IMG/VR virus record: IMGVR_UViG_3300033146_001559
Location: 1-55,560 of that record
Reading direction: 5' to 3' (one strand)
Source of the DNA: a virus
Lineage: Duplodnaviria > Caudoviricetes
DNA: 55,560 nt
Position numbers and translations under genes: made by a program. Of the stretch, positions 8,717 through 32,949 are shown in pieces (the first letter of the stretch is position 1; the number at the start of each line of letters is the position of its first letter). The notes under the pieces were generated by a model. It saw only the letters and a program-made list of their open reading frames with translations. It did no database searches and was not told where the DNA came from.

Positions 8717-8771
8717 ACACAGATTTTACCACGATTTGGTATTTATGCAAGCGTAAACGATAATTAAAGTC

Positions 8772-10272: not shown

Positions 10273-10312
10273 GCACAAATGATATAGATTTAGTAATTAA
10301 AGTCAAGCACTT

Positions 10313-10756
10313 ATGAAAAAATTTGATATAGTAATAAACGAGATATTCGAAACGATCACAAAACGTGGTGATCTGATGGGTGATACTATGCCCCAACTAC
10401 CGTCATACAAACAAAAGCCGAATGATGGGGTTGGTGCTAAATATAGTGCAAACGACCAAGGGAAAATCGCGGGAAAATATCGGAAGGGGGTCGATAATGT
10501 TGAAGGTTCTATGGTATCAGATCGGGATCGGGCTGCTGGGACCGAGAAGGGTCAGCTCAAAACACAGATGGATGGCGGTGGAAAAATACAGAAGGTGGTG
10601 ATGAGTCAAATGCGATTTAATCGTCTACTGAACCAATCGGGTGAGCGGTCCATCGATCTTTCCGATGGTCAGGAAAAAATTGTTAACAGTAAGGATGGAG
10701 AACTGACCGTAACACTTTTGGGTGATGGGCGCGTTAGTCTGGTGCGACGTCCATAA
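10313..10756 (+). CDS. Late hypothetical protein, candidate internal head protein
   Basis: TAATTA upstream with a longer spacing; N-terminus MKKFDIVINEIFE. Confidence 0.55.
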   Translation: MKKFDIVINEIFETITKRGDLMGDTMPQLPSYKQKPNDGVGAKYSANDQGKIAGKYRKGVDNVEGSMVSDRDRAAGTEKGQLKTQMDGGGKIQKVVMSQMRFNRLLNQSGERSIDLSDGQEKIVNSKDGELTVTLLGDGRVSLVRRP

Positions 10757-11969: not shown

Positions 11970-11971
11970 TT

Positions 11972-12541
11972 TTAGAGTATTGGGGTTTGTGCATCAATGT
12001 CAGTTAAATTCACGATCTGAATGTCCATTTCATCAAGAACGGATTCGCGTTCAACGACGCCGCGTAATATCCTATCGTCATCGACCGTTGGATCCTGATA
12101 GCTACCACTCTTCGAATATTTCGTAAGAAATACACTCTCGACATTATGTAAGAACCCAATCGTGCTCCCCTTCGCGCTCACACTGACCTTCACGTCAGAA
12201 ATTTCCTTTCGCTTTATATTATAGAACAAGGCAATATCACGAATTTTTGTGGCGAGAATTGGTATGACGTTTATCAATTCTGATTTATCGGTAAGGTCTA
12301 TGTTTGATAGCTTTATCACCTCGTCATCTTCACTGTATAGTAGTGTTATTCGATTTAAATAATCAGTGTATTGCTTGGAAAGAAAATTCAATGCCTCCCC
12401 GTCGGCGATAATAACCTCCTCCACTAAAGTGGCCTTCAGATACATATCATACTTGAGGGGTCGATCCTCATGCCTTATACTCGGGTTCACTTTTACCCAC
12501 TCAGCAAACCTGAGAAGCGTTGATGGGTTATATTTCTCCAT
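11972..12541 (-). CDS. Late hypothetical protein (possible baseplate component)
   Basis: TAATTA-N5-ATG; 189-aa ORF. Confidence 0.55.
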   Translation of the reverse strand: MEKYNPSTLLRFAEWVKVNPSIRHEDRPLKYDMYLKATLVEEVIIADGEALNFLSKQYTDYLNRITLLYSEDDEVIKLSNIDLTDKSELINVIPILATKIRDIALFYNIKRKEISDVKVSVSAKGSTIGFLHNVESVFLTKYSKSGSYQDPTVDDDRILRGVVERESVLDEMDIQIVNLTDIDAQTPIL

Positions 12542-12556
12542 GTATATAATTAGAGT

Positions 12557-12742
12557 CTAATAGTCAGATATCATCTTTTTCGTCTTGGTGTTGATAGATT
12601 TCATTTTAGCCAGCTCGGATTTAAATACTTTTAGTTTATCCTCTGATTCCTCTCTCCCAACAAAACTCTTCAATACCTCGACTTGCACTTCAAGAAGACT
12701 TGAGATTAATGTGAGTTCTGCAAATTTATAAACGGTTTCCAT
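12557..12742 (-). CDS. Small late hypothetical protein (METVYKF...)
   Basis: TAAATA-N5-ATG places the start at 12742. Confidence 0.5.
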   Translation of the reverse strand: METVYKFAELTLISSLLEVQVEVLKSFVGREESEDKLKVFKSELAKMKSINTKTKKMISDY

Positions 12743-12776
12743 ATTACTATTTATACCACTCCATACAAGTGTCAAC

Positions 12777-13265
12777 CTATAAAAACGGGACGTTGCCGTC
12801 CTTGATGTTTTTCTCGGACACCAAAACAAATTTCCATCCCTTCGTGTCGCAATATTCCTTGGCGGCACGCCATTTTGCTTGGTTGATTGCGAACATTTTT
12901 AGTTCATACATTAGTGTGGATTCTTTTTTCCGCCCTGTCCTCTTCGGTATCTTATTTTCAAGAATCGCGGTAATCTCTTTTTCTGGTTTTATTTCTACAA
13001 TTAATACGCCATGCTCTTTCGAATGGACTACGAGATCTGTCCAGTATTGACACACCCTCTTCTTAATGGGGTTATAATACGGTATCCATACCACTTCGCT
13101 ACCCCATTTTGTGATCCTATTGGAATAATCGAGCTTATACATATACTCAAACTCTAATTGAGAGCGATATTCCACCTTCTTACCCGATTGAGTATTTATA
13201 CATTTAGCTTTATTACGGGGTTTATAAATACCCTGTTTGTATTTTGGTCGACGACTCCTAGCCAT
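12777..13265 (-). CDS. gp4: Head completion nuclease (T4 gp4, TnsA-like)
   Basis: YKQGIYKP.N..K, YRSQLE, WGSE...IPY, YWTD, VEIKP, NQAKW.AA..YC...GWKF. Confidence 0.9.
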   Translation of the reverse strand: MARSRRPKYKQGIYKPRNKAKCINTQSGKKVEYRSQLEFEYMYKLDYSNRITKWGSEVVWIPYYNPIKKRVCQYWTDLVVHSKEHGVLIVEIKPEKEITAILENKIPKRTGRKKESTLMYELKMFAINQAKWRAAKEYCDTKGWKFVLVSEKNIKDGNVPFL

Positions 13266-13266
13266 A

Positions 13267-15420
13267 TTATGCCGTTAGGTTTGGGTTATTTGATGACAGC
13301 GGTGGTGACCAATAGGGTATATCAGACCCATCACCCTTGATCGGTCTATCATGAGTAGTTACGACTGGGGACACACACCCATCAGAAGTTAGTGCATGGC
13401 CTGATAAAATCGGGTTATTGAGTTCCATTAAACTCATCGGAGTGAATGACGGATTAAATAATTGTGGCATTAACCCGTCACATGATTGAGCACCAATGGT
13501 CCAGTTAGTTGGTATGAATTTTGTTTTCTGTATCACTTCTTCCTCGGTGTCACTTGACGTGTATATCGCCATAGACATATCCTTGACCATCTTACCATAT
13601 CCCTTATCGGTGTATGTGTTCCCACTTAAAACATCATCACCCAACATGACAGGAACGTTCATAAATGTCATGACCACGTTCGACGCGATAAACCGAAGCC
13701 TGTATTCCTTATCTATTTTAAGTCGGGTCGAACTATATGAATTACGGTTAAATCGAAACGTGAATGGGTCCCCTCTTGCAATGTCCTCCCCGTCGTTTAG
13801 ATTGAAATGGTTTAGTGATATCGCCTGAACTATGTTCCCGTCATATAATCCAAGATAAACTGTATTGAGTAATACATCATGAGCATGTGACTTTGTTGAT
13901 TTTATAAATGTCACTGCGTTGAGATAGTCACCCCGCCGATCTTCCACCAACGGGTCAACTGAAAATCCAGTATCATTCAGGGTAAATCTCTGTTCTGCTC
14001 GGTCACTTGGGGCTATTGCGGATGAGGTGGTAAGTGTATACTTCCCTAGAAAATACGAATCATCCGTATTAAATTTATCTTTACCTACTATCATACTAAC
14101 CATGCCATCGATAGTGTCAAAGAATAGCGATATCATTCTGTTTAATGAATGACATGAGACTATTTCGTCATATCCCACATACAGTCCGCATGGGGTGGAA
14201 GCTGTTGCGGGGATGATGGGTTCGGTGCTAACAATCTCAACTACCCCCGAGGGATCCTTATTAACCACATACACACTCGTGATGTTGGTTCGCAGGTCGT
14301 TAATATTCTGTATTAATTTTGACGCAGAGTCATTTAAAACGATTGACGAGAACATCTCATCCTGTGAAAAAGAAAGTCGATCCCAGTCGAAGGTATAGTC
14401 GAAGTCCTCTGCTATCGTCTGTGTGAACGCATAGTCCAATGCATTCGCCCATAGGTTGTTGGCCAGAATATGAATATGTGTCCCATCGCGGGCCATATCG
14501 GATATGGCAATTCCTTCGTGTGATCCCAGCACCAAACCACCTACTGATAATTTAGTAATTGAACTGCCACTGAATACCCACAGAAATCCATCCTGAACAT
14601 CATCAACTAAAATCCCAGTCGGAGACACTACTGGATGGTCGATGATGACGTCGATAGTGGAAGTCTCTATTGCAATGATTTCAACGACGCCATCACGAAC
14701 AACGAATAAATTACCACCAAAAACATCAATAGACCCACACGCACCCACGGCATATGTCCATTCATGCGCTAGTGAATGACTGTAACCCTTGACCGCACCG
14801 TTTCCACTGTCCCATACATATATACCACCCGTGGTGTGGTCAAAAATAACTTTCGCTGGATCCCTGAATTTATATTCAGCCGATAGCCCACCATATCCAC
14901 CAAAATACGTCTTAAACGACTGATCGTAGTCAGTAATCCCGATCTTTAATACATATCCACCATCAACAATAAAAAGATCATCGTCAACCAAAATAACGTC
15001 AACCACATCTTTCAATTTACCCATATCCGTCTCGGTTATTATCATTTTACGAATACCGTTATCAAAAATTTCAATCCTTTTAGTGTAAAATATCACCTGT
15101 CGATTTCCATTAGTATATAACCCCTTTCGATTGTCAATATCATCCAGAACGCCACCATTCAGCTCATCAGCCAGAATCATATCAATCGGCATAATCGAAT
15201 TATAAATTTCCACATTACCACGGACATATTCAACACAATCGATTATTTTATCCTGCATACTATTTAGTGTGACATTGGTAATAAATTCGGTGGTAACCGA
15301 AACGTCCTCCACCGAATACGGGAGCTTTAGCTCGGTGTCAATGGTTCTAGTTATGGACGGTCTATATTCCTCTAACTCATCAAGAGGGATATCGTCGGGA
15401 AAATTATGGTTGATGCTCAC
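13267..15420 (-). CDS. Late structural protein with NHL/beta-propeller-like region
   Basis: FGGYGG...KFRDPAKV...IYVWDSGN NHL-like repeat; TAAATA-N5-GTG. Confidence 0.55.
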   Translation of the reverse strand: MSINHNFPDDIPLDELEEYRPSITRTIDTELKLPYSVEDVSVTTEFITNVTLNSMQDKIIDCVEYVRGNVEIYNSIMPIDMILADELNGGVLDDIDNRKGLYTNGNRQVIFYTKRIEIFDNGIRKMIITETDMGKLKDVVDVILVDDDLFIVDGGYVLKIGITDYDQSFKTYFGGYGGLSAEYKFRDPAKVIFDHTTGGIYVWDSGNGAVKGYSHSLAHEWTYAVGACGSIDVFGGNLFVVRDGVVEIIAIETSTIDVIIDHPVVSPTGILVDDVQDGFLWVFSGSSITKLSVGGLVLGSHEGIAISDMARDGTHIHILANNLWANALDYAFTQTIAEDFDYTFDWDRLSFSQDEMFSSIVLNDSASKLIQNINDLRTNITSVYVVNKDPSGVVEIVSTEPIIPATASTPCGLYVGYDEIVSCHSLNRMISLFFDTIDGMVSMIVGKDKFNTDDSYFLGKYTLTTSSAIAPSDRAEQRFTLNDTGFSVDPLVEDRRGDYLNAVTFIKSTKSHAHDVLLNTVYLGLYDGNIVQAISLNHFNLNDGEDIARGDPFTFRFNRNSYSSTRLKIDKEYRLRFIASNVVMTFMNVPVMLGDDVLSGNTYTDKGYGKMVKDMSMAIYTSSDTEEEVIQKTKFIPTNWTIGAQSCDGLMPQLFNPSFTPMSLMELNNPILSGHALTSDGCVSPVVTTHDRPIKGDGSDIPYWSPPLSSNNPNLTA

Positions 15421-15440
15421 TATAGTATTTATGGTAAAGT

Positions 15441-15821
15441 TTAAAAGAAGTTGGGGGTGTGATCGCCCACCATCGCCCGCACCGTATTGATCGATTCCCA
15501 GTCGGGTGTCATCAAACCTCGATGTTGTGCATCAAACTCAGCTAGTGCCGATTCACACCGATCCAAACCACTCCCACCACATTTGCTTTCAACCACCCGT
15601 CCCTTGTCGTGCAGTGAGTGTGCCAGCATTCGATTCACCGCTGATAGTAGGGTAGTGTGTGCTTGCTCGGGGGTGATTGGGGGTGGTTTAGTGACTACCG
15701 TAGTCTTGGCTATTCGTAGTTTATCAGCGACTCTGTCCCACCCAATGAACGCTAATATTGGTTCATCCGAACCATATACTACCTCACCAGTCTTAAAAGA
15801 TTCCAACTCACCTCGTTCCAT
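15441..15821 (-). CDS. Late hypothetical protein
   Basis: TAAATA-N5-ATG. Confidence 0.5.
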   Translation of the reverse strand: MERGELESFKTGEVVYGSDEPILAFIGWDRVADKLRIAKTTVVTKPPPITPEQAHTTLLSAVNRMLAHSLHDKGRVVESKCGGSGLDRCESALAEFDAQHRGLMTPDWESINTVRAMVGDHTPNFF

Positions 15822-15829
15822 AATAGTAT

Positions 15830-16186
15830 TTATTCGTTTATGTAATCGATGACACTATTAATAACCCCCGAGGACGGTATCAAAATATCAGTTCCTACCA
15901 AAGTCGGAAGGACAAACGGGTCGTTGAAACCATTAACCATTCCGATCAACCACCACAGGCGATGAGTATCAAAATACAACCGACTGATGGTATGTAAATT
16001 TTCACCCAACGCAACCTGATGTGAAAAAAGGTCAGTCTGACTGATAGACTCGACCTCGAAATAGACCGAATCGGTCATATCGTAATACTTACCCCCCGAG
16101 TCTTCTCTGACCGAGAAGAAATTTTCAAAGTCTAAATCACTCACTGGGGGTAACCCACGGGTGTTTGTTCGTTTAATGTCAGCCAT
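15830..16186 (-). CDS. gp53: Baseplate wedge protein (gp53/LysM-like)
   Basis: HQVALGENLHTISRLYF...LWWLIGMVN...DPF...GTDILIP; start re-assigned to 16186 by promoter spacing. Confidence 0.75.
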   Translation of the reverse strand: MADIKRTNTRGLPPVSDLDFENFFSVREDSGGKYYDMTDSVYFEVESISQTDLFSHQVALGENLHTISRLYFDTHRLWWLIGMVNGFNDPFVLPTLVGTDILIPSSGVINSVIDYINE

Positions 16187-16205
16187 AAGGATAATTATAG
16201 TCATG
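16184..16205. promoter_or_regulatory. Bidirectional late promoter: CAT-N5-TAATTA-N5-ATG
   Basis: One palindromic TAATTA (16192-16197) exactly 5 nt from start codons on both strands. Confidence 0.75.
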
Positions 16206-16427
16206 AGTGAATTCAAAGAATTATGTAACACTATTATAGATGAGGGGCGTTCGGTTGTGGTGAAGCGACGTTCTTTCTATCCACGCAAAATCGAAAAAAT
16301 CGGAGGACTCTCCCCCGAATTTGTAGAGGGGTTGGGACTTGAGATGGATCGACTACAACAAGAAGACCCCAGTATTTCCATGGGTAACTTTATCAAGGCT
16401 ATTAATTTTGAACTGGGACAGCATTAG
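16203..16427 (+). CDS. Small late protein, candidate internal head protein
   Basis: MSEFKELCNTIIDE N-terminus; TAATTA-N5-ATG. Confidence 0.55.
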   Translation: MSEFKELCNTIIDEGRSVVVKRRSFYPRKIEKIGGLSPEFVEGLGLEMDRLQQEDPSISMGNFIKAINFELGQH

Positions 16428-18298
16428 AGCGCTAATAACCACTCAATATCGGCCTGAAGATCCTCGGGACTTTCGTACCCGCCATAATCCACCATGTCTC
16501 TAGTATAAATACAGGGAGTGTATGCCGTAGAATTAATAGGCATTTGTTCTTGCGTTGCCCTCACATCACTGTCAATCGTCTCACCTATAATGCCGATGGG
16601 TTTGGAATACTGGTCAAATTTCGGGTCACTGAGATAGAAATAATCCTCCACGAGCTTATGGTGGAGTAGTAGCATTGCCCATGCTAATGCATCTACCAAG
16701 TCATCATACGACTCAGTGCCACCCTGTTTACCCCACTTCCAGTTGTTATTAGCACTGGTTACTTTAACAAACCCGTCCATCTCGGTGACAAGCTGGGAAG
16801 ACCGAATAGTTAACACGCTAACTTTATTCATGAAGTGATATAAGTTAGCCACCGACATATTCTTTGAATTGTTATGCGCAACAATACCAAATTCGTTGTT
16901 CGCCATCATCCGTTTATTCGAAGTGGTATTAAAGTGAAATCTCACCAACTTCCTATACCCATAGGATATGTTCATCGCCGAAACCACTTCACGGCCACAA
17001 TTATTATTTTCGATAGCACACCAGCACTGATTATACGTATTGGCCATTTTTAACACAATCAACGGAAACTCTTGTAAAGATATAGTGTTGTTTCTATATT
17101 CAGCCACCTGACGGATGTCCTTGAGATCCGTGACATCAATTATCTGGATTACAGAGAAACAGTCACCTACCCCCTCTGCAACGTCAACACCAGCAATATA
17201 GATGTGTCCGTTCACTGGATACTCCCATATCTTTAAGGAATCGTCGTCGGGGTCCCCATCATTATTCATCATCTTCCCTTGGGTGAAGATTGGTGGTTTC
17301 ACGGTGTTCTCAGAAAAATGCGCTTTGGTATCTGCCGATATCACACGTTTGATGTCATCACCCATTGCAAATGATCCACCATACTCGGTGTAGAATGCAT
17401 GTTCAGATCCCATCTCGATGATTTTCTCTGCATACCACTTATCATCCCGTTCTGGGTGGTCGCTCCATAACATCTGGAATGCTTTAAACTTGGTTGCTTT
17501 ATTTGGGTCTTTGTTTTTCTCATAGTCCCGTGCTTGATGGTAAATCTTCGCAAAGTGATTATTCATCCCATATGGTGTTGAAATCAGAATACAGAAAGAG
17601 TTATCACCCTCGGGGTTATAAGCCATGGCATCCAGTGTTGGGAGCACCGATTGTAGAATGGTTTCATCAAGACCCACTTTTCCATTATTATTAACGAAAG
17701 CCCACTCATCGGCAACGATTGAAGTAATCGTGGAACCACGGAAGGCGGCTTCGGTGGTGGAAGAGATGGTTACCTTGTTTTTATTATCAAACTCAAGGAT
17801 AGATTCGTTCCAGCGGGCAACCGCTGGTTTGAGAAATAATGGGAGATACTCATAGGCTTCTTTGATCTTCGATAGGTTGTTTTTTGCTAAGGTGTAGTTA
17901 TTTCCCAGCAAACCGATCGATTGTATACCCTTACCAAATAATAGATTCCAGAGGACAAATAGTGTCATTAGTGTAGTTTTTGACGTCTGTCTTGAGCTGT
18001 TCAATACAACACGATTGTTCTCTTGAAAATGCCTGAGTGCTTGTCGCTGAATGGGCCATAGTTTAATCAATTCCTTGTTGACCCCGAAGGTTGTGATTGT
18101 GAAGTAATTCTCCGCAAAGTATTCAATACTGTTCTGGCATCTGAGTAGTTCTGTTAGGTGTTCTGGCTTTAGTTCGAATTGGGCACCTTCAAATGGAACC
18201 ATGTGGTTATCACCAAGCCAACTCTCTACGATAACCTCAGCATCCAGAACATTATTATCCTCACCCCAGTGCCATATACCATCAATCTCTTCACTCAT
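16424..18298 (-). CDS. gp17: Terminase large subunit (T4 gp17-like); start re-assigned to 18298
   Basis: YFAENY, LWPIQ, SRQTSKTT Walker A, ADEWAFV, ISTPYGMN, AGVDVAEG, IENNNCG, DDLVDAL. Confidence 0.93.
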   Translation of the reverse strand: MSEEIDGIWHWGEDNNVLDAEVIVESWLGDNHMVPFEGAQFELKPEHLTELLRCQNSIEYFAENYFTITTFGVNKELIKLWPIQRQALRHFQENNRVVLNSSRQTSKTTLMTLFVLWNLLFGKGIQSIGLLGNNYTLAKNNLSKIKEAYEYLPLFLKPAVARWNESILEFDNKNKVTISSTTEAAFRGSTITSIVADEWAFVNNNGKVGLDETILQSVLPTLDAMAYNPEGDNSFCILISTPYGMNNHFAKIYHQARDYEKNKDPNKATKFKAFQMLWSDHPERDDKWYAEKIIEMGSEHAFYTEYGGSFAMGDDIKRVISADTKAHFSENTVKPPIFTQGKMMNNDGDPDDDSLKIWEYPVNGHIYIAGVDVAEGVGDCFSVIQIIDVTDLKDIRQVAEYRNNTISLQEFPLIVLKMANTYNQCWCAIENNNCGREVVSAMNISYGYRKLVRFHFNTTSNKRMMANNEFGIVAHNNSKNMSVANLYHFMNKVSVLTIRSSQLVTEMDGFVKVTSANNNWKWGKQGGTESYDDLVDALAWAMLLLHHKLVEDYFYLSDPKFDQYSKPIGIIGETIDSDVRATQEQMPINSTAYTPCIYTRDMVDYGGYESPEDLQADIEWLLAL

Positions 18299-18312
18299 AC
18301 GTGAGTAATTAT

Positions 18313-18519
18313 ATGTTGTTTGAAAATAAATCAGATTTTTGTTGCAAAAGTAAAACAATATGGTATCATATATTATATGAAGACTGCTTCGCAACAGTAA
18401 GAAATAAGAATCATGACAAAAATACTCCAATTCCTGATGGTTGGATGACGGGATCTTCGTTACGGAATAACGAACACGAATGTCCTATATGTAAAACAAT
18501 AATTCATAAAAAACGTTAA
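18313..18519 (+). CDS. Small hypothetical protein, possibly a homing-endonuclease remnant
   Basis: IPDGW..G motif and CxxC; AT-rich. Confidence 0.3.
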   Translation: MLFENKSDFCCKSKTIWYHILYEDCFATVRNKNHDKNTPIPDGWMTGSSLRNNEHECPICKTIIHKKR

Positions 18520-18566
18520 CATATTCTGACGAATGCAAACGTAAATACCAAACACAAAAATAATAA

Positions 18567-18652
18567 AGTATAGTAGCATAATTGGCAATGTAATAGATTA
18601 TTAATCTGTGAGATTTATCTCTATGTAGGTTCGAACCATACCTATACTGCCA
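18567..18652 (+). tRNA. Atypical/degenerate tRNA, anticodon ATT (Asn-like), long variable arm
   Basis: Acceptor AGTATAG/CTATACT+G+CCA; anticodon arm ATAGA-TTATTAA-TCTGT; T-loop TTCGAAC; one T-stem mismatch. Confidence 0.55.
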
Positions 18653-18661
18653 TTTTCAAAC

Positions 18662-18752
18662 TGCGGGGATCACATTAGTGGTTCATGTGACCAGTCTCAT
18701 AAGCTGTCGTCCTTTATCGGGCATGTGGGTTCGATTCCCTCCACCGCAACCA
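18662..18752 (+). tRNA. tRNA-Met(CAT), initiator-like ends, long variable arm
   Basis: 5' TGCGGGG, loop CTCATAA, TTCGATT T-loop, 3' CCGCAACCA; a few stem mismatches. Confidence 0.7.
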
Positions 18753-18755
18753 TAT

Positions 18756-18809
18756 GTATCGGGGGTTTACCCCCGCCAGTTCTAGGTTCAATTCCTAGTC
18801 GATGCACCA
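18756..18809 (+). ncRNA. Minimal tRNA-like element (acceptor stem + T-arm + CCA, no full D/anticodon arms)
   Basis: GTATCGG/TCGATGC+A+CCA; CTAGG-TTCAATT-CCTAG T-arm; only a GGG-TTTA-CCC hairpin between. Confidence 0.5.
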
Positions 18810-18905
18810 CCACCTAAACATATGTTTTGGCACATACTTTATTACCACAGTCCCAGAATCGATCATAACCATTGTTCAGCATGTTCTGATAACCAGATAG
18901 TGTGG

Positions 18906-19328
18906 GGTTCGAAACTGTAACCTAAAAACTTACAATATTAAAAAACATTGACATTTTTTATTTTTTTTTATGTAGAATAAGTTTAATTAAAGATGAAGAC
19001 TAAACCAAACATGATCACAAGAATAGCGAATTCGAAACGGACGATGGTATAGTTCACCCTATTCCTTTTGAATTAGATTACGAGCCAACATTAGAAGAGT
19101 TCCAAGAACTTTATGATGATTGGTTTAGAATATTAGAAAGAAAGGCTTAAACTAAGTGACAGAACTGAATGCTTCTATTAATTTAAAGCAACTTTATACC
19201 GTGAGTTCCACGGGAATTAACGCCTCGGGAGATTGGAGTTCAGATCAGCTTACGCTGATTTCAGCCAGTCGTTGAATGAGGAAGAAAACATAAATCTACT
19301 TGTAGATTTTGTAAGTTTTTTAGAACGG
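18906..19328 (+). mobile_element. Non-autonomous IS607-like mini-element retaining the TnpB 3' end / omegaRNA scaffold
   Basis: Ends match the element at 21841-23096; internal frame reads LNASINLKQLYTVSSTGINASGD (TnpB C-terminus); GG at both ends. Confidence 0.75.
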
Positions 19329-19369
19329 ACGCATGCAATACAACAACACCAATAATCTAACCAAAACAC

Positions 19370-20245
19370 TCATACCGCAACGGGGGCTTTGATTGAACTC
19401 ATTGGGGTGTAGCCCTCAATGTCGGTATCACTGTGCTCCCAGTCAAATATGCTGGTGAAGTTGTCTGTAGTAATCCGTGGGGGTGGTTGTGGGGTGCGTG
19501 ACAGCTGTTCAATTGCCTGATCCATGTGGTTCTCATACAAGTGGACATCACACCCAAATGCAGTCAACACGCCCTCCTGTAATCCAGCCTCTTTTGCGAT
19601 GAGGTGGAGAAGTAATCCGTAAGATGCAATATTGAAGGGAGCACCGAGGAAAAAGTCCCATGAACGCATGTTGAACGTGAGGTCAAGTGTTTCTCCGTTC
19701 GACGTCAACTGGAACACGTAGTGACACGGGGGTAGTGCTGTATGGTTGAGCCCCATGGGGTTCCAAGCCATACAGATCATTCGGCGATCCAAAGGGTTCT
19801 TCTTCAGTGTTTCGATGATATTGGCAAATTGGTCAATACCATCCGAATCTGCCATGCTATCCCAGCTGTATGGATCATGGAAATTTCTCCAGCTCGCCCC
19901 ATAGATACATTCGCCGAGGTAATCTTCACCCCGCATCTTCTTAATGGTCTCTGGGTCATTACCGTATGGCACTTTCGTCGGACAGCACCAATCAGACCAG
20001 ATCATACACCCTCGATCTTCGAACCATTTCTTAGAGGTGATTCCTTTAATAAATCCTTCCAGTTCAACCTTCATGGTTTTCCATGAAACTCGTTTTGTGG
20101 TTAGCATTGGAAAACCGTCAGACATATGGTGTTGAAGCATTACTGGTGGCATTTTATATGCACCCGTTCCAGTTCTGTTATCCTGTCTGGGGGATCGGGT
20201 TAGTTGACGAAGAATATTAAGGTATTGTGTTTCAATGTCTTGCAT
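19370..20245 (-). CDS. thyA: Thymidylate synthase
   Basis: NRTGTG, FPMLTTK, AWNP...ALPPCH, RSWDFFLGAPFNIASY, DVHLYENH, IKAPVAV. Confidence 0.97.
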   Translation of the reverse strand: MQDIETQYLNILRQLTRSPRQDNRTGTGAYKMPPVMLQHHMSDGFPMLTTKRVSWKTMKVELEGFIKGITSKKWFEDRGCMIWSDWCCPTKVPYGNDPETIKKMRGEDYLGECIYGASWRNFHDPYSWDSMADSDGIDQFANIIETLKKNPLDRRMICMAWNPMGLNHTALPPCHYVFQLTSNGETLDLTFNMRSWDFFLGAPFNIASYGLLLHLIAKEAGLQEGVLTAFGCDVHLYENHMDQAIEQLSRTPQPPPRITTDNFTSIFDWEHSDTDIEGYTPMSSIKAPVAV

Positions 20246-20275
20246 GTCGTTATAATAAGTGATTTTAGTAATTTG

Positions 20276-20797
20276 TCAAATCTTTTTCAGTTTTAGTCTG
20301 TCTTTGGAAAACTTTCTGAGCTTTTCGAATTCAATTCTCGTTAATTCGTCCTCCCGACCGAACCGTTGATAGATATTATAATGGCATTCGGTGGGTTTGG
20401 TTACAAATGACTCGGTGTCCACATACCGATTACAGAAATTGATGACGTCCGTTCGTAGGATGAAAACAAAGGAATCCTCGCGTTCAAACACAATATAGTC
20501 AGCATCCCCGTAAAGCCACCCAGCGTGCCCTGTGATGCCTTTAAACTCAATCCAGACATACTCGGTGTCTAAATGGGAATCATTGCGTCTGAGGCGTTTC
20601 TGCGCCTTTAAATCGACTGAGTGTATTTTGTTATTGAATTCAAGTCGGTAGTCAATGTGATGATAAATATCCTCCTCATCAGTTGAATACCTGAACTCTA
20701 TACCGTCAGTTGCAAGAACTGCTTGCTCAAACTGATGTGTTGCTGATTTATCAAGAGCGAATGCTCGTTGACTGGTGTCTCTTTCGTTTAGTTTCAC
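20276..20797 (-). CDS. PD-(D/E)XK family nuclease
   Basis: D...HIDY...VDLKAQK, VWIEF, GWLYG.ADYIVFE. Confidence 0.65.
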   Translation of the reverse strand: MKLNERDTSQRAFALDKSATHQFEQAVLATDGIEFRYSTDEEDIYHHIDYRLEFNNKIHSVDLKAQKRLRRNDSHLDTEYVWIEFKGITGHAGWLYGDADYIVFEREDSFVFILRTDVINFCNRYVDTESFVTKPTECHYNIYQRFGREDELTRIEFEKLRKFSKDRLKLKKI

Positions 20798-20834
20798 TAT
20801 GGACAGTGTATCACACCAGCCATGGTTGTCAAAT

Positions 20835-20866
20835 AAAACCCCGTGACTGATCTATCACGGGGTTTT
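20835..20866. terminator. Intrinsic terminator hairpin directly downstream of the tRNA
   Basis: AAAACCCCGTGA-CTGATCTA-TCACGGGGTTTT. Confidence 0.7.
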
Positions 20867-20971
20867 GGTGGGAGTGTCGGGGTTCGAACCCGAAACCTAG
20901 CAATTATTTTAGATTCACTTGTTAGTGTGAACCCCAAAGAGTTGCCCGCTCTACCGTTGAGCTACACTTCC
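20866..20971 (-). tRNA. tRNA with 31-nt hairpin insertion in the anticodon loop (Met/Ile2-CAT or Lys-CTT after removal)
   Basis: GGAAGTG-TA-GCTCAACGGTAGAGC, anticodon stem GGCAA/TTGCT around a 38-nt loop, TCGGGTTCGAACCCCGA, CACTCCC-A-CCA. Confidence 0.8.
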
Positions 20972-20977
20972 ATAATT

Positions 20978-21547
20978 TTACTCGGATTCCAATGCATATC
21001 GAAATTCCTTTACACCCTGTCCGAGTTGATAATCGGGGGTCTTCAATGAGTCTACCAAACGAATAAGTGCTCCAACATGAACGGAGTATTCATCACCATC
21101 CCGTGCTACGTGCTCAGTCGTGTATGACTTATCGAAGTCAGTCTGTCTTGTAGTTACATAATCACCTTCAACCGTAGCTTCAGATTTAGCGTGCTTAATC
21201 GATGATAATCGCAGTAGATCTTCTGCCATCATCAGGAGAGCACTCTCATCCTCATGGAATGCCTCATCCATATTGGTAGAGTCGAAGCCGACCTTAGTGG
21301 TGGCTTTAAAACCATCCACACTGATTGTTCCTTGAGATTCATTGAAATTGATATCTTCAAATGAAACCTGAGTTCCACCATCATCACCGAGGATACCCCC
21401 AGTAGATTGGTATTGTCGGAGATCATCATTCAGTGTCAGGGCAACACGCTCAATCAATCCCTCGATGGTATTGGCGGTCAGGATTTTATTCTCCCGCACG
21501 CCAATACCCTCAAGGACAACACCAATCATCTTATCAAATTTACTCAT
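20978..21547 (-). CDS. Late hypothetical protein, candidate internal head protein
   Basis: MSKFDKMIGVVLE N-terminus; TAATTA-N5-ATG. Confidence 0.55.
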   Translation of the reverse strand: MSKFDKMIGVVLEGIGVRENKILTANTIEGLIERVALTLNDDLRQYQSTGGILGDDGGTQVSFEDINFNESQGTISVDGFKATTKVGFDSTNMDEAFHEDESALLMMAEDLLRLSSIKHAKSEATVEGDYVTTRQTDFDKSYTTEHVARDGDEYSVHVGALIRLVDSLKTPDYQLGQGVKEFRYALESE

Positions 21548-21602
21548 GAAACTAATTATTGTTTTTGTGTATCCATGGCGAATTTCGCAATGAATGCATC
21601 AG

Positions 21603-21776
21603 CTACTGTGTTCGCATATTGAATACCAGCAGTTGCATATTTGGTTGACTCGTTTCATCCAATACCATCATGGATGCATGGTGACTAAATGCATTCTTCC
21701 AAATCTCTTGTGCTGAGTATGACACTCCTTCGTTGTGATTATCAATACGCTCCTGTGCAATTTCTTTCTCGTTCAT
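21603..21776 (-). CDS. Small early hypothetical protein (MNEKEIAQ...), possibly frameshifted
   Basis: TTGACA-N16-TAATAT-N6-ATG directly upstream; not in the ORF track. Confidence 0.4.
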   Translation of the reverse strand: MNEKEIAQERIDNHNEGVSYSAQEIWKNAFSHHASMMVLDETSQPNMQLLVFNMRTQ

Positions 21777-21840
21777 GTCAATATATTACCACGGGGTTTC
21801 AAATTGTCAACTTCTATTGTGAGATATGCGTCAAACCAGA

Positions 21841-23096
21841 CCGTTGTTAAAAACCTCAAAAATCTACAAGTAGATTGATTCAATTTTCAACTATAATCCC
21901 CGACGGTAAACTAGGGAGACTCCTCGATCCAAGATATTTTTTGATGCATTACAATCAGCATGGTCAGTGTGATTGCACTTCGTGCATCGAAAAACGTCTT
22001 GAGTTTGTCGATTCATCCTATCGGTATGACCACATGATCTACACATTTGGGACGTATAGGCTGGGTTTACTGATGTAAATCGAACACGGTTCTCTTCACA
22101 ATTTCGTTCCAACCTGTCAAGCCAATATGCATAGTTCCATGAACCAATAGACTTTCGTAAAGACTTCGATAGCTTTCGCTTCTTCTTAGTCTTAAAATTC
22201 ATATTCTTCAACCTTTCAACTACAATCCGTTGTAGGTTTGGGTTCTTATCAAAAATTTCTTTAGCAGTAGTGTTAATGTAATGACGAAGGTAATTTCTCA
22301 ATCGTTTCTGCCTCTTGGAGCCGTGCCGACACCCATTAATTTTATTAATAATGGATTCTATTTCATTACCATAAAACTCTGCATCAGAAGTGACCGCCAG
22401 TGTTTTGATTCCAGTATCAATGCCGATCACTTTACCTTCTTCTTTCTTCAAGCCTGTATCGATTTCAAACACAAACTGCACATAGTCTTTCGTGATGATA
22501 TATGAGTTAAGTCGTTTTCCTTTAGATTCCCATTTGTTAAATTGTTTGTGTTTTTTAATCGGAAGCAGAAGTTTTATTTTGTTACCAATGGAACCAAGCT
22601 TTAGAAAGCAATCAAAGCTACTTTCGGATTCTTGAAGATCGGCAATGGTTGAACTACAATACATCCGATTACCTCTATGTAGGGGTTTTGATATATTCTT
22701 TGGTTTGTGTTTCCACCTCACCCTCACTGCGAGAATCATATCCAGAGCTTCCCTCGCGGCAACTTTTCTCAGCCGTGCCGACATCCAAGTATCGTCTTTT
22801 GTTATATCAACAATGGGCTTGAGTAATTTAGCTTTGGGTGGTAATTCTTTTAACTCCCAGAAATAATCAATGAATAGATTCACCACATTTCCATATTCGG
22901 ACAGCACTTCAGCCAACTCAGATTTCTTCTTCTGGGTTGTGAATTTTAATGTGCATTTTGACGCCCGAACGAACTTCATATTAATAATTATAGTTATGGG
23001 TAAACAAAAAATACGTGTTAACCCATTTATTTTTATTCTTTTATATTTTGGAGATTATTTGAGGTATTGTAAGTTTTTAGGCTACAATTTTGAACC
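21841..23096 (-). mobile_element. Non-autonomous IS607-like element carrying tnpB only
   Basis: Left end GGTTCAAAATTGTAGCCTAAAAACTTACAATA, right end AATCTACTTGTAGATT...AACGG; GG at both junctions. Confidence 0.75.
21891..22979 (-). CDS. tnpB: RNA-guided endonuclease TnpB
   Basis: RuvC D-E-D intact (GIDTG, IVVERL, HADCNAS), YTSQMC and CxxC...CxxC zinc finger. Confidence 0.93.
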   Translation of the reverse strand: MKFVRASKCTLKFTTQKKKSELAEVLSEYGNVVNLFIDYFWELKELPPKAKLLKPIVDITKDDTWMSARLRKVAAREALDMILAVRVRWKHKPKNISKPLHRGNRMYCSSTIADLQESESSFDCFLKLGSIGNKIKLLLPIKKHKQFNKWESKGKRLNSYIITKDYVQFVFEIDTGLKKEEGKVIGIDTGIKTLAVTSDAEFYGNEIESIINKINGCRHGSKRQKRLRNYLRHYINTTAKEIFDKNPNLQRIVVERLKNMNFKTKKKRKLSKSLRKSIGSWNYAYWLDRLERNCEENRVRFTSVNPAYTSQMCRSCGHTDRMNRQTQDVFRCTKCNHTDHADCNASKNILDRGVSLVYRRGL

Positions 23097-23567
23097 CATT
23101 GATTCCTCCTCCACCTCAACATTCTTCTTCAACAACTCAACCGTGTTCTTAAATGCCTTTTCGAGGACACCCTCGGGTAGTTCCAAGTCATAAACATCAC
23201 CAGAACGAGCCATCCCTGCCATCACACAGTCCGTGATATATTCCAATACGTCCACGAGATTGACATCTTCAGGAACCCCGTCCTCTTGTGCAAGGTGGTG
23301 TCTCCAGATCTTGCGGTGGTTGTCCCACCATCCAGTGTAGCCATCTTCAAATCCATTAGCGAAGTCATCGTGGAACCAGTCAATCTTGGTGAGTTTGTCT
23401 TGATCGTGAATACCAGCGGCTTCTAGGATCATGTTATTAAAGAATCCAAGTCCTTTAACTACATCCCCAATATGCTGGGCTGAGCTGGCAAGAAGTGTTT
23501 CCTTCGTGGTGTTTTTAAAATCACACGTTCGTGAGTCGGCCGTTGCTGATTTCTTAATCGTTATCAT
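23082..23567 (-). CDS. DUF5662-like HD-domain protein; C-terminus supplied by the IS left end
   Basis: H...HDQDK...H...RHH...EYITDC; early promoter TTGACA-N16-TATCAT-N6-ATG. Confidence 0.6.
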   Translation of the reverse strand: MITIKKSATADSRTCDFKNTTKETLLASSAQHIGDVVKGLGFFNNMILEAAGIHDQDKLTKIDWFHDDFANGFEDGYTGWWDNHRKIWRHHLAQEDGVPEDVNLVDVLEYITDCVMAGMARSGDVYDLELPEGVLEKAFKNTVELLKKNVEVEEESMGSKL

Positions 23568-23608
23568 GTGATGATGATAACACATTAATAAAGGTTGTCA
23601 ACTTTTAT

Positions 23609-24463
23609 TTAGTCACGTTCACCCCAGAGTTGCGTAATAGTTAGATTGATCAATCCAATCTGGTGATCAGTGAAATCCCAACGGACACCGATATTAGCCT
23701 TTGCCCACTCACGTGGGTCGGTGTCTTTCTCTTCGGAGACTGAACACCAGTCACAAACCATCTCCTGAATATCATAATCACCCATACTAGATGCATCAAT
23801 AAGTCGTTGTGGTTTGTCGCGGTCATCGGGGTTTGTCAGATCGGATTTATCGGGACTCCAATACTCTGGGTGGTGTGTGTTCTTGGTAATGTGGTGCTCC
23901 GTGGCTTCTTTCATGCGCTCCTCTATATCTGCTGGTGGATTGAAGCTCTGGAAATCTGTTCCGTCTTCCTGACACTTATACTTCCAAGTCAACCACACAT
24001 ACGGCCCAAACTCTGGCTCTTCGAATTTTGAGGAATCATGTTCCACCATACGCTTACGCTTTTCATCGTCATCCATATCTGGAAGCTGTTTGATGAACTT
24101 CCTCACTCGTTTGATATGGTTGTATGTTCGACTGATAAAGTGTTCCTCCATATCAGGCGTGAAATCTTTCGGGGGCTCCCCACTACACCCACACCCCGAA
24201 CCCATACTGTCCATTATGTTATCAAACGTGGCATCATATGATCCTCGCATCTCACCACACTCCTCTTTGATCTCAAGATCTTCGTCATCAACTTCCTCCG
24301 CCTCAATTCGGGCTTTTTCTTCCTCCTTCTTTTTATCAAGGTGTTTTTTGTATTTTCTGGCGGCAAACTTCGCGCCTTTGGTTAAAACAAATTTAGCAAC
24401 TTGCTCTTTAGCGCCTTCCTCGACTGGCTTTGCATCTGACATCAACTCATTGAACGTGGACAT
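23609..24463 (-). CDS. DUF5662-like HD-domain protein with acidic N-terminal propeptide-like region
   Basis: HIKRV...HDSSKF...HHITKNTHHPEY...EMVCDW; TAATTA-N5-ATG. Confidence 0.7.
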   Translation of the reverse strand: MSTFNELMSDAKPVEEGAKEQVAKFVLTKGAKFAARKYKKHLDKKKEEEKARIEAEEVDDEDLEIKEECGEMRGSYDATFDNIMDSMGSGCGCSGEPPKDFTPDMEEHFISRTYNHIKRVRKFIKQLPDMDDDEKRKRMVEHDSSKFEEPEFGPYVWLTWKYKCQEDGTDFQSFNPPADIEERMKEATEHHITKNTHHPEYWSPDKSDLTNPDDRDKPQRLIDASSMGDYDIQEMVCDWCSVSEEKDTDPREWAKANIGVRWDFTDHQIGLINLTITQLWGERD

Positions 24464-27420: not shown

Positions 27421-30400
27421 CTATGTAATTTCGCATGCACCACCTGAACACGAGGCACCTGCCATTGTGTCAGCATCTACGTGGACTGCGGATTCTTCGT
27501 ATGCCTTTGACCAATCAACATCAACATATTCACGTTTCAGATCACAGAAGATCTTCCAGTTAGTCACATCCTTCAGACAGTATGTCATACGTTTCACATC
27601 GCCTTCAAAATATCGATCGGCGAACTGAAGTGCTCGGCGGATCCAGTCTTGTTTGAGGTCATATTGTGATGAGGTGTCGGATAGAGCATCATCTGCATCA
27701 TCCAGTTTTTGTTCGAGCTTGGCGATCTTGGTAGATAATTCATTTAGCTCTGGTGAGTATGACGCCGTGTATTCGATCACCTCATCGACATTATTCATAG
27801 TCATCTTATCACTAATGATATCTTTAATGGTCTTATACTGAATATTCGCCTGTGATAGCTCTTCAAGGAGCGTGTCATACTTTTCCTGTGCGACATCCAC
27901 TTCACCGTTTAATTGCTCAATACCGAGCGCATGGCTACATGCAGACCATAAATTATGGTCGAACGCTCGGAGACCTGCTGTAATGAGTCCAGATGCAAAT
28001 ACCGTTGCGTCACCATATTCCTTGACCATCTCTGCTGGAGTATAAACGGTTGAGAATGGTGATTGTGGGTAATCCTTATCACCCGATGAAGGTAGCATGG
28101 AGACTCCCGTGAAATTATCTTGGTTAGTCCACAGGTAATCGAATACCTCGTCCCATTCATCTTCCTTGACGGAAATCGTATTGGACACATTGTGTCGAAG
28201 ATATGGCTTATTACTTAGTTCTGGGCGGGTTCCGTGCTCTACCCAGTTCTGTTGGGTTAGTTTTACGTTTTCTAGTAGTTCAATTGCACCCAACTGGTTC
28301 TTAACAATAGCGCCTTTTGGCACCTCGCATACAAACGAGATAACATTATCCGTATCATTCGCCGACCACACACTCTTTTCGATAGCAGATGGATTAAACA
28401 TCCCAAAATATTGAGCTGGAAACTCAAGGGAGTTACATTGTATTCTCCTAACGTATTTTCTGGAGTGGTGAGGATGCACCCCCGAGGAGGTTCCAAGTAG
28501 ACATGACGAACTACCTTCTGGCTTCACACACGTCGTTCTAGCTGAACGACTTACACCAATTAAATCGGCTACTAGCGCGTTAGTTTCCTTAACAATCTCC
28601 GCGCCTTTGCGTTGAATTTCTGGATCCAGAGTGATAGCAGGATTATCCATAATCCCCGTAATACTAACCCCGAGTAGTGCCTCTTTATCGGTTAGTTCTT
28701 TTGTTGCTGATGCGATATATTTGAAATCAGTATACCCCGCTTGTAGTGTTCCAATGATTGCCGCTTCACGACAGCATTTATAGAACTTCTCGGCAGTGTC
28801 CGTGTATTTACCGTTGATTGTGCTGAGGTTACACATCTGGAACCCTTGGCGGCCATCTGGGAGGACGGGTCTGAATGAGATCTCACAGTTATGAACAATA
28901 ACCCCATTACAACTGAATGAGCTAGATTCGGGAACCGTGCAATCATACACTTCCTCCTCACCTACATATCGAACCTCCTTCACACCAGCCATTCGGCCAT
29001 TTGATAGTTGAACTATTGTTGAGTCATTGATATCTCCGATATTCACCCAGCTATCATCAAACCGTTGAATTCTGTGATCCGCCGTTCCAATCATCGGGTC
29101 ATAATCGAACTGGTGTTTATCATCAGTCGGGTCATGTATTAACTTATCAAAAGTTTGAACTACCGTTTCTTCTGTCAGCCCGCCAGCCAATTGCTTAACT
29201 TTGAGTCGTGTATCATTAAAATCATCAAGAACTAATTCATACACTTTCTTTGTTCCAGTTGACCAGAAACCACATTCGGTTGATTCGTATAGTGCTCCAT
29301 ATATTTCGGTTTTAAATTGGACACCGACTAAGTCGGAAACCAACTTATCGCCCATATCTGTCTGAATTTTGTTCCGACCAGAAACACAACAAGGGTTGAC
29401 CCCACTCTCATTATCATCCATAAAAACGAATGCGGGTTCCCCATACTCACGGACTCGTTCTTTAACCATATCAAATTCCTCTTTAGTGGAATCCCCACGG
29501 ATGAACACGGCGGAGTTATTAGAGCGTGCCCTCTGTGGGTTGTCGTTGAACCAATTTCCTGTTTTAGCATTCATAACTTCTTCATCATCAATGGAGAAGA
29601 TAATAATCAATGCGGAGTTGTGTGATACTGATTCGAATTTAGAGTCCTTTTGTCTCACCGTGAAGGCGTGAACGTCGGCGACCGATATATCATATGTTCG
29701 ACCATCTTCGATTCTCTCTGTTTTACCAATCCGAGAAAGCTTGTAATCCGAAGGTAATAGGTTGTCGCCTACCTCAACACTAGCACCACTACGGTCTGTT
29801 ACCAATGAGAATCGGGACGTCTCTGCTTCGATGATCGAGGTAGACATCCATCCCATATTTTCAACTAAATGATCATACACGAGCCACTTGTGGTTTGGTG
29901 TTGAGACCTGATAGCCGTATTTTGACGTGATTTTAACTAACGACTGCACGCCGTTATCCATTACCTCAGTCACTGGATATTCCTTACCAGCATACAACAC
30001 GGTGTCATCCAAAGTTAGTTCACTGATCTGTTTAAATGACCCATTTCCGAGCTTAACTTCGGATTCATGAAAAAGACAACGACGAACGCCACCACTCAAA
30101 ACGGCGTCTGAAAGATGGCAGATAATATCAAGTATATTGATCGGTTTCAGTTTATTACTAAACTCCCCCTCGGTGAAATCCTCATCCTTCAATCGTGCTT
30201 CGATGACCTCTCGGATCAACTCAACTGACCTATTTAGTCCGTTAGATCCTGGAGCCTTAAACCCACCACTGATAAGGGCACCCGCTGGTCGGATATCAGA
30301 ATAATCGAATTCTACGACTTTTCCACCCCATCCACCAAACCCGTCAATACTGACGGCTCCGAGGTATGATGCCATCAATACATTGATGCAATCTGCCCAT

Positions 30401-32948: not shown

Positions 32949-32949
32949 A

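Follow-up and report, generated by a model that had tools for sequence, protein, structure and literature searches.

A transfer RNA gene of a T4-like phage with a hairpin insert beside its anticodon: a candidate for protein-based splicing

Introduction

This report concerns a transfer RNA (tRNA) gene in a 55,560-base IMG/VR virus record (IMGVR_UViG_3300033146_001559; the whole record is called the window here), whose anticodon loop is enlarged by a 31-nucleotide (nt) hairpin insert. The window has a completeness estimate of 26% and, as judged from its genes, comes from a T4-like myovirus. To our knowledge, the textbook view is that tRNA introns of bacteria and their viruses are of the self-splicing kind only. 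An initial annotation of the locus had recognized a tRNA with its anticodon split by a hairpin and had proposed either a protein-spliced mini-intron or an unspliced mimic that resists anticodon nucleases or acts as their decoy. It gave no strand; the gene lies on the minus strand, running from 20971 to 20866. The feature is real and uncommon, and its architecture, together with the company of RNA ligase genes in related phages, yields a concrete and testable model of splicing.

The Interrupted Gene and Its Insert

The whole interrupted gene (20866..20971, minus strand) is 106 nt long with an encoded CCA, as delimited by Rfam, by ARAGORN with introns permitted and by minimum-free-energy (MFE) folding, and is most likely a gene for tRNA-Lys(CUU). 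Both its Rfam score and ARAGORN with introns place it in the tRNA family (RF00005). The Rfam match covers 20971..20869 (-) and model positions 1-71 with 50.7 bits (cut-off 29), the alignment skipping a 35-nt block within the anticodon loop. ARAGORN at default settings does not call this gene; with introns permitted it reports a tRNA-Lys(ctt) at c[20866,20971], i(36,31), that is, with a 31-nt insert after the anticodon. Outside the loop the full RNA reads GGAAGUG UA GCUC AACGGUA GAGC G GGCAA [38-nt loop] UUGCU AGGUU UCGGG UUCGAAC CCCGA CACUCCC A CCA. The sole blemish in this body is an A3.C70 mismatch in the acceptor stem (GGAAGUG/CACUCCC); the D arm is GCUC-AACGGUA-GAGC, the anticodon stem GGCAA/UUGCU, the variable loop AGGUU and the T arm UCGGG-UUCGAAC-CCCGA, followed by A73 and the encoded CCA, and the tRNA invariants U8, A14, G18G19, the UUCGA T loop, A73 and CCA are all kept.

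Directly after the CCA stands an intrinsic terminator (20831..20866, minus strand), a 13-base-pair (bp) stem AAAACCCCGUGAU/GUCACGGGGUUUU followed by the U run UUUUAUUU, which overlaps the last CCA base. Its fold has an energy of -20.7 kcal/mol (z-score -5.6), which none of 200 shuffles equalled; a simple terminator scan did not list it. Because of the Rfam score, the full set of usual invariants and the terminator directly behind it, the window gene is a real tRNA with an intact body, and the coordinates, the near-canonical body and the terminator of its own that had been described in the initial annotation are all correct.

The anticodon loop as a whole (20904..20941, minus strand) comprises 38 nt and reads CUCUUUG-GGGUUCAC-ACUAACAA-GUGAAUCU-AAAAUAA. 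In the ARAGORN register the 31-nt insert is 20906..20936 (-), U GGGGUUCAC ACUAACAA GUGAAUCU AAAAU, and removal of 20907-20937 yields the same product as removal of 20906-20936. On direct reading in the ARAGORN register, which is the favored one, the 5' exon (20937..20971, minus strand) holds the acceptor 5' strand, the D arm, the 5' strand of the anticodon stem and C32 U33 C34 U35 U36, and the 3' exon (20866..20905, minus strand) holds A37 A38, the 3' strand of the anticodon stem, the variable loop AGGUU, the T arm, the acceptor 3' strand, A73 and CCA.

The core hairpin of the insert (20911..20934, minus strand), present in both the MFE and the centroid fold, consists of an 8-bp stem GGGUUCAC/GUGAAUCU and an 8-nt loop ACUAACAA; the hairpin reported earlier at 20908-20938 is exactly UUUGGGGUUCAC-ACUAACAA-GUGAAUCUAAA on the minus strand. 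The core stem holds two G.U pairs, which would be A.C mismatches on the opposite strand, and therefore the hairpin structure belongs to the transcript of the tRNA strand. In its MFE fold the whole RNA adopts a cloverleaf whose anticodon arm is extended (-31.8 kcal/mol, z-score -2.3; 4 of 200 shuffles as stable). Folded under constraint, the anticodon arm reaches -13.1 kcal/mol, an energy attained by 3 of 1000 insert shuffles with the 5-bp anticodon stem fixed; it is laid out as a 3x3 internal loop of CUC against UAA, a paired UUU:AAA, a 1x1 G.A mismatch and then the 8-bp hairpin.

No second copy of the hairpin was found within the window with up to 3 mismatches allowed, and exact 24-mer and 19-mer scans of IMG/VR for close relatives of the gene gave 0 matches. 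The idea of a mobile element was rejected, as neither the window nor IMG/VR holds another copy and the TnpB gene 1 kb upstream is parted from the tRNA by an open reading frame (ORF), ORF189. A sigma-70-like sequence, TTCACA-17-AATAAT (10/12), lies inside the tRNA insert at 20903-20931 (-) and is probably there by chance.

Similar Inserts in Other Phage tRNA Genes

An IMG/VR query made from an alignment of the window terminase with its 17 nearest database relatives returned 80 loci, seven of which carry a terminase 47-56% identical to that of the window. The two closest relatives of the window phage are the records G001 and G002, and a further record, G003, has a terminase 47% identical and is 65% complete. 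Whole-record searches gave 17, 3 and 27 tRNA matches in G001, G002 and G003, respectively, and one of the G003 matches is 106 nt long. This G003 gene (44.6 bits) has the anticodon stem AGCUU/AGGCU and a 41-nt loop, CUCUUU-CGUAACAUAC-UGAUCUUA-GUGUGUUACG-UGGAUAA. This loop has the flanks of the window loop and, like it, an apical loop of 8 nt, on a 10-bp stem of unrelated sequence.

Further members were sought with a fixed pattern consisting of a Lys-like D arm and CTCTTT opening the anticodon loop. In IMG/VR this pattern found only G003 and one ordinary tRNA, and among 185,579 prokaryote genomes it matched 8 loci, with no interrupted tRNA among them. In JGI metagenomes it found 22 loci, including L140 and L141, which are one sequence on two contigs: CUCUUU-GCGAGGGA-UGCG-UCCCACGC-CAAAAUAC, with a 27-nt insert and 60.3 bits, located in an array of 18 tRNA genes mixed with small ORFs. 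When other bases were allowed at position 34, the pattern gave 44 loci in IMG/VR. Among these are L176, a 373-kilobase (kb) phage with a 34-nt insert, and L201, a 127-kb record with a 44-nt insert, both with the loop CUUUUU...AAAAA of a Lys-UUU type; L201 has two further interrupted tRNAs with inserts of 41 and 27 nt, and L177 (near-copies L183 and L196) has a 31-nt insert. The interrupted tRNAs of L176, L201 and L177 score 50.0-61.2 bits in Rfam, and their folds are cloverleaves, or nearly so, in which the anticodon arm is long.

Seven further phage tRNA genes, from five other phage-like lineages, thus have structured inserts of this kind, 27-44 nt long, at the position seen in the window; together with the window gene, eight interrupted genes were compared (window, G003, L140, L176, three in L201, and L177). 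The initial annotation had suggested a search for homologues with a structured insert, and these seven genes answer it, so the feature is real. The three CUU-type genes (window, G003 and L140) have the flanks CUCUUU...AUAA/C in common and unrelated hairpin sequences. Between members, exon identity is 59-80% and insert alignment 35-58%, and comparison of the inserts gave no recognizable common sequence; therefore, position and stable fold recur, not sequence. In 4 of 7 arms tested, none of 1000 shuffles matched the energy of the arm. The Rfam scores of the interrupted genes (44.6-61.2 bits) are comparable to those of their uninterrupted neighbors, and, in individual phage records, the share of tRNA matches that exceed 95 nt in length is 1 of 35, 3 of 29, 2 of 24 and at least 1 of 21. 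Among 40 more distant T4-like records, no tRNA match exceeds 91 nt. A blastn comparison of six interrupted tRNAs with cultured phages gave no full match and one 34-nt partial match, to the T-arm region of a Rhizobium phage.

In addition, a second class of insert, about 79-84 nt long, was seen in anticodon loops at L179 2224-2380, 3871-4023 and 5005-5159 (G049) and at L156 2872-3044 (G003). The three L179 inserts contain a T-arm-like hairpin GGUUCGAnUCC, and two of them have tRNA scores of 53.8 and 59.7 bits.

Anticodon Identity and Splice Register

Four registers restore a 7-nt anticodon loop in the window tRNA: CU/AAUAA, giving AAU; CUC/AUAA, giving CAU; CUCU/UAA, equivalent to CUCUU/AA, giving CUU; and CUCUUU/A, giving CUU with U37, which corresponds to the 37/38 position. 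The junction arithmetic of the initial annotation was right, in that CUC joined to AUAA gives CAU and a shift of 1-2 nt gives CUU, and it left out two registers, those with the AAU product and the 37/38 position. Its insertion at 34/35 (CAT) is one of four registers and is not favored, whereas its reading as Lys CTT is favored over CAU by comparison across members.

When all eight members are read from the 5' side, a canonical loop CU-NNN-A-A/C results in seven of them, with the anticodons CUU (three), UUU (two), UAU and UCC; besides the CUU and UUU types, the remaining members read as Ile, Gly and one that is unclear. A reading from the 3' side gives mostly anticodons with A34. The L177 tRNA has G1:C72, C2:G71 and U73, which are glycine identity features and not those of proline, and because of these bases L177 is taken as Gly(UCC), not as the Pro(AGG) of the 3'-side reading. 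Since the 5'-side reading gives ordinary anticodons across members and the identity bases of L177 agree with it, the favored assignment of the window tRNA is Lys(CUU), with a predicted canonical loop CUCUUAA after removal of the insert; any other anticodon product appears improbable. Comparing the tRNA body with those of 83 other tRNAs does not discriminate among Lys, Ile and Met. AAG is used at 27.5 per 1000 codons in the window and makes up 41% of Lys codons, which is compatible with Lys(CUU) and no proof of it.

Unusual anticodon loops were also seen in other tRNAs. Normal-length phage or metagenome tRNAs with the loops CUCUUUA or CUUUUUG, and hence U37, occur in L116 (2173-2245), L136 (5066-5139), L146 (533-607) and L209; a purine at position 37 is the rule in tRNA. 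In L162 (3175-3324 of a 113-kb IMG/VR record), two neighboring tRNAs have 8-nt anticodon loops, for which ARAGORN gives the four-base anticodons 'cttg' and 'cttt'. Anticodons with A34 are frequent in this phage group according to ARAGORN (L155 and L156 in G003; L157 in G001), namely Phe aaa, Ile aat (twice), Tyr ata, Ser aga and His atg, and the window itself has an Asn att. Such an abundance of A34 is unusual for bacteria-type tRNAs, and some of these genes score low in Rfam.

A Candidate Splicing Route

In four of the eight members (L176, L201a, L201c and L177), a near-continuous helix runs through the loop in one register, with C32 bulged and with U33:A38 and N34:A37 paired; N35 pairs with the last insert base (as U-A, C-G or A-U) and N36 with the one before it. 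Excision at 36/37 in this register leaves 2-nt 3' overhangs on both products, and such overhangs are the signature of cutting by RNase III. An alternative register of the window arm, two A-U pairs long, would likewise give a 2-nt stagger.

Genes for candidate enzymes were searched in ten phage records (G000, G001, G002, G003 and G046-G051), the search covering phage-encoded genes. An Rnl1-type ligase (PF09511) is present in seven of the ten: G001, G002, G046 (twice), G047, G048, G050 and G051. It was not found in G000, G003 and G049. Among the positives are the window's two closest relatives and every insert-tRNA record, three in all, with a completeness of 90% or more. The initial annotation had proposed a search for ligase and endonuclease genes; the window yielded none, but G001 and G002 carry Rnl1 within a cluster (L224, G001 47000-63000; L225, G002 8000-24000) that also encodes a Thg1-like 3'-5' polymerase, a PHA02142-OB/Rnl2-type RNA ligase, a RlaP nucleotidyltransferase and a small AAA_33 kinase. 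The G001 cluster is interrupted by GIY-YIG and LAGLIDADG-like genes. In G047 a full Pnkp (kinase and HAD phosphatase) adjoins the ligases, and G048 has a kinase-HD protein. A kinase and an Rnl1-family ligase occur together in G001, G002, G046, G047 and G048, and neither in the window, which is 26% of a genome. Furthermore, G003 encodes RlaP and a LigT-like 2H phosphoesterase with two HxT motifs, and L140 gives a weak 2H match.

We tentatively propose, with somewhat less than even confidence, that the locus is a phage tRNA gene, most likely for Lys(CUU), with a protein-spliced 31-nt hairpin mini-intron after the anticodon. The precursor would be unable to decode. A structure-specific RNase would cleave it endonucleolytically at two sites, both at the base of the extended helix of the anticodon arm; given the 2-nt geometry in the four relatives, the leading candidate is host RNase III. 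The tRNA body would keep the two exon halves together, and a phage RNA ligase of the T4 Rnl1 type would seal them in the anticodon loop, a Pnkp-type kinase/phosphatase healing the ends first if the cuts leave a cyclic phosphate. The product would have the canonical loop CUCUUAA. On the genes compared here, such inserts are best read as a short, non-self-splicing type of intron scattered among the tRNA genes of large uncultured phages. That large phages run tRNA splicing of their own, with a double-strand- or structure-specific RNase (host RNase III or a phage enzyme) cutting and Rnl1/Pnkp rejoining, is a more doubtful proposition.

Several observations weigh against this proposal. We infer the cutting and sealing of the precursor from gene sequences. 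The arms of the three CUU-type genes, including the window, are less regular than those of L176, L201a, L201c and L177: the window helix has 16 bp in three segments and is broken by the 3x3 internal loop, and in its MFE register the Lys product corresponds to a stagger of 1 or 3 nt, not 2, so that by its predicted fold the window is a poorer match to the RNase III geometry than its relatives are. Masking of the anticodon is at the level of chance in the window, where two of the three anticodon bases are paired and 702 of 1000 shuffled inserts pair two or three. RNase III was found in none of the ten phage records; Rnl1, Rnl2 and RtcB are lacking both in the window (26% of the genome) and in G003 (65% complete); and T4, as far as we know, has Rnl1 and no tRNA intron. 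The contrast between seven of ten records with Rnl1 and none of 14 T4-like records without insert tRNAs (one of them complete) is confounded by relatedness, G048, G050 and G051 being near-copies and the controls another branch, and the association of Rnl1 with interrupted tRNAs, which involves few lineages, is suggestive only. L140 shares no protein with the window or G003 in BLASTP (E-value 1e-3). The search patterns demanded a Lys-like D arm and CTNTTT, so the 5' flank of L140, L176 and L201a and the excess of Lys are partly selected, and D arm and 5' flank are therefore not independent evidence. The pattern did not select for the presence of a hairpin, for the 3' flanks or for the by-catch from L201 and L177, which are independent evidence.

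Alternative Explanations

The gene might instead produce an unspliced tRNA-shaped RNA that acts as a decoy or sponge for host anticodon nucleases against tRNA-Lys (PrrC, PARIS-type), or as a mimic for repair or modification enzymes; we consider this unlikely. It would accord with the finding of EndA, RtcB and RNase III in none of the ten phage records, with three other aberrant tRNA-shaped genes in the window that could hardly decode, with tRNA-likes lacking a D arm in G001 and G003, and with the repair genes of the relatives (Rnl1, Thg1-like, RlaP), which act on tRNA ends. In published passages on T4, tRNA-Lys is a known nuclease target (PMC3400036). However, an anticodon-nuclease decoy should expose its anticodon loop, which is buried or distorted here; the flanks permit a canonical CU-NNN-A-A/C loop in seven of the eight members, which would be needless if the RNA were never spliced; and the inserts are spread over Lys, Ile and Gly tRNAs rather than confined to a single nuclease target.

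Less probable still is a disabled tRNA gene, decaying or neutral, in which a hairpin-forming insertion arose by slippage or from a small selfish element. The A3.C70 acceptor mismatch would suit a gene in decay, inserts affect only 1-3 of 21-35 tRNA matches per phage record, and no close relative of the window gene that could show purifying selection was found by exact scans of IMG/VR or among cultured phages. Yet the other tRNA invariants, the CCA and the terminator are intact, and the Rfam scores of interrupted genes match those of their uninterrupted neighbors (44.6-61.2 bits). Eight independent genes have the insert at the same phosphodiester neighborhood and with canonical loop ends, and the hairpin, with no second copy in the window or IMG/VR, is unlike a spreading element.

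Splicing to another anticodon, namely CAU (Met or Ile2), AAU (Ile) or, with a 37/38 insert, CUU with U37, would have only a slim chance of being correct. CUC joined to AUAA is a canonical Met loop, CUCAUAA, and all three CUU-type members keep A(-4)U(-3)A(-2) unchanged; for the G003 gene the ARAGORN call is Ile(gat), and the best body match of the window tRNA is an Ile(gat) of G001 (0.68, versus about 0.65 for others); and normal-length tRNAs with CUCUUUA (L116, L136, L146) and CUUUUUG (L209) exist. In contrast, ordinary anticodons come only from the 5'-side reading, the 3'-side reading giving mostly A34 and being contradicted by U73 of L177; a tRNA-like gene with a CAU loop is already present in the window (18663-18751); and comparison of the tRNA bodies does not settle the matter.

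An archaeal- or eukaryal-type intron cut at a bulge-helix-bulge, to which the site beside the anticodon and the 31-nt length bear some resemblance, or a self-splicing group I intron, is highly improbable, as no register gives two 3-nt bulges 4 bp apart, EndA (PF01974) is found in 0 of 10 phage records by a search that finds it in 4 archaeal control genomes, RtcB is likewise found in none of the ten, the gene belongs to a T4-like phage and has a bacterial-type terminator, and 31 nt cannot hold a group I core. The bulge-helix-bulge motif consists of two 3-nt bulges that are separated by a 4-bp helix and carry the splice sites; inspection of the folds showed no staggered bulges in any register and a symmetric 3x3 internal loop instead. 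Group I introns have a catalytic core P3-P9 and need at least about 200 nt, for which the insert has no room, and cmscan of the window (gathering thresholds) and of 20700-21100 (E-values up to 1) found only the tRNA, plus a chance isrJ match on the other strand. The initial annotation was thus right to call the insert far too short for a group I intron and different from an ordinary 37/38 archaeal-type intron, the favored junction being 36/37.

Genomic Context

Upstream of the tRNA lies ORF189 (20978..21547, minus strand; 189 amino acids), whose stop codon is 6 nt before the tRNA, and the two are probably part of the same transcript. ORF189 has no Pfam or PHROGs match; of G001, G002 and G003, only G002 holds a match to it, a weak one (E-value 0.004), and the ORF that precedes the L140 tRNA is not a homologue of it. 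Directly past the tRNA terminator lies ORF173 (20276-20797, minus strand; 173 amino acids), which has no Pfam or PHROGs family and no k-mer homologue, and which is a member of a phage protein family that is widespread (its ESM Atlas clusters have 57-99 members). A lead to a PD-(D/E)XK nuclease is weak, concerning 13% of the members of one near cluster in the ESM Atlas.

The window encodes a large terminase, tail sheath, thymidylate synthase and ribonucleotide reductase with an intein (27421-30849), as well as a portal, tail sheath stabilizer, head closure protein, Dda-like helicase, primase, tail tube, baseplate hub and SbcC-like nuclease, all of them T4-like markers. Its terminase is at most 31% identical to those of cultured phages, the best being Sinorhizobium phage phiM9, Agrobacterium Atu_ph04 and Pelagibacter HTVC008M, and megablast of 18000-23000 against cultured phages gave no match. 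Two TnpB-like genes with a Cas12f1-like TNB domain are located at 21891-22979 (-) and 31923-33525 (-); the latter additionally has OrfB_IS605 and is adjoined by a serine resolvase.

Three consecutive tRNA-shaped genes, each ending in CCA, lie at 18567-18811 (+). The first (18567-18652) scores 45.9 bits as an Rfam tRNA and has an A34 anticodon, AUU, and a 12-nt variable arm. The second (18663-18751), with a CUCAUAA loop and a long variable arm, is below the tRNA cut-off and matches only tRNA-Sec, with 23.7 bits. The third (18755-18808) is a mini tRNA-like with an acceptor stem, a GGGGG/CCCCC hairpin and a T arm, and with no D or anticodon arm (z-score -2.8). D-armless tRNA-likes with the loop CUUCUAA and a long extra arm are also present in G003 (L113 287-374, minus strand) and G001 (L115 90-174, plus strand), with 22.1 and 34.0 bits, respectively.

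Relation to Known Systems and Significance

The inserts exhibit similarities to several known systems, but there are also differences. Archaeal and eukaryal introns (EndA/TSEN with RtcB or Trl1) are short, protein-spliced inserts beside the anticodon that pair with loop bases while the body holds the exons, as is proposed for the window insert; here, however, there is no bulge-helix-bulge, no EndA or RtcB occurs in the phage records, the phage is of a bacterial type, and the favored position is 36/37 rather than 37/38. Group I introns of bacterial and phage tRNAs also interrupt the anticodon loop, at varied positions, but they contain a catalytic core, unlike the 31-nt window insert with no Rfam intron match. 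In the intervening sequences of bacterial 23S ribosomal RNA, a hairpin extension stands in place of a loop and is excised by RNase III, whose cuts, staggered by 2 nt, are made in an unbroken helix of roughly two turns, and the pieces are not rejoined. The resemblance lies in a hairpin that replaces the loop of a stable RNA and in the proposed excision by a double-strand-specific RNase; the difference is that a tRNA must be religated to decode, and that the window helix is shorter and interrupted.

A parallel for the enzymes is break and repair in T4, in which, according to the cited passages, Pnkp and Rnl1 reseal tRNA-Lys broken in the anticodon loop by PrrC (PMC3400036). The two have in common a T4-like phage, tRNA-Lys, an anticodon-loop break, which for the window gene is a proposed one, and the Rnl1 and Pnkp families, which here occur in relatives; that system, as described there, answers an attack by the host on one of its own tRNAs at one site, whereas two cuts, a phage tRNA and a gene-encoded insert would be involved here.

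The searched literature held no paper on short hairpin introns in phage tRNAs except that of Devoto et al. (2019; PMC6784885), and nothing on a route of RNase III and ligase for tRNA introns; a 'mini-intron' paper (PMC3590771) proved unrelated. In its passages on the subject, the Devoto paper describes 'enigmatic' introns in tRNAs of Lak megaphages and states that phage tRNA introns had not been reported before. Those tRNA genes, like the window gene, are overlong by an anticodon-loop insert that Rfam cannot classify, are conserved between related phages and have no known mechanism (PMC6784885). They differ in that they belong to 540-kb Prevotella phages, not T4-like ones, and in that at least one Lak insert is long enough to resemble a tRNA, a description that the 79-84-nt inserts of L179 recall; the same passages make no mention of a hairpin architecture, a 36/37 position or a link to Rnl1 (PMC6784885). 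With an insert in the anticodon loop of a phage tRNA and the same flanks in G003, the window gene is likened to this class by description only. To the extent that those passages define the class, it adds a Lys tRNA of a T4-like phage to a class that has appeared in print only as 'enigmatic'.

Finally, hairpin inserts of 27-44 nt that are unable to self-splice would imply either enzyme-driven tRNA splicing in the bacterial world or tRNA look-alikes that are deliberately non-decoding. A cut-and-rejoin step of the kind needed is not described for bacteria or their viruses. Either outcome would bear on the roles of phage Rnl1, Rnl2 and Pnkp beyond the repair of PrrC damage, and on how phages shield their tRNA supply from anticodon nucleases. 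If large phages do run tRNA splicing of their own, the phage 'repair' enzymes Rnl1 and Pnkp would have a routine role in maturation, and some phage tRNAs, here that for Lys, a favorite target of anticodon nucleases, would be usable only where the phage enzymes are present.

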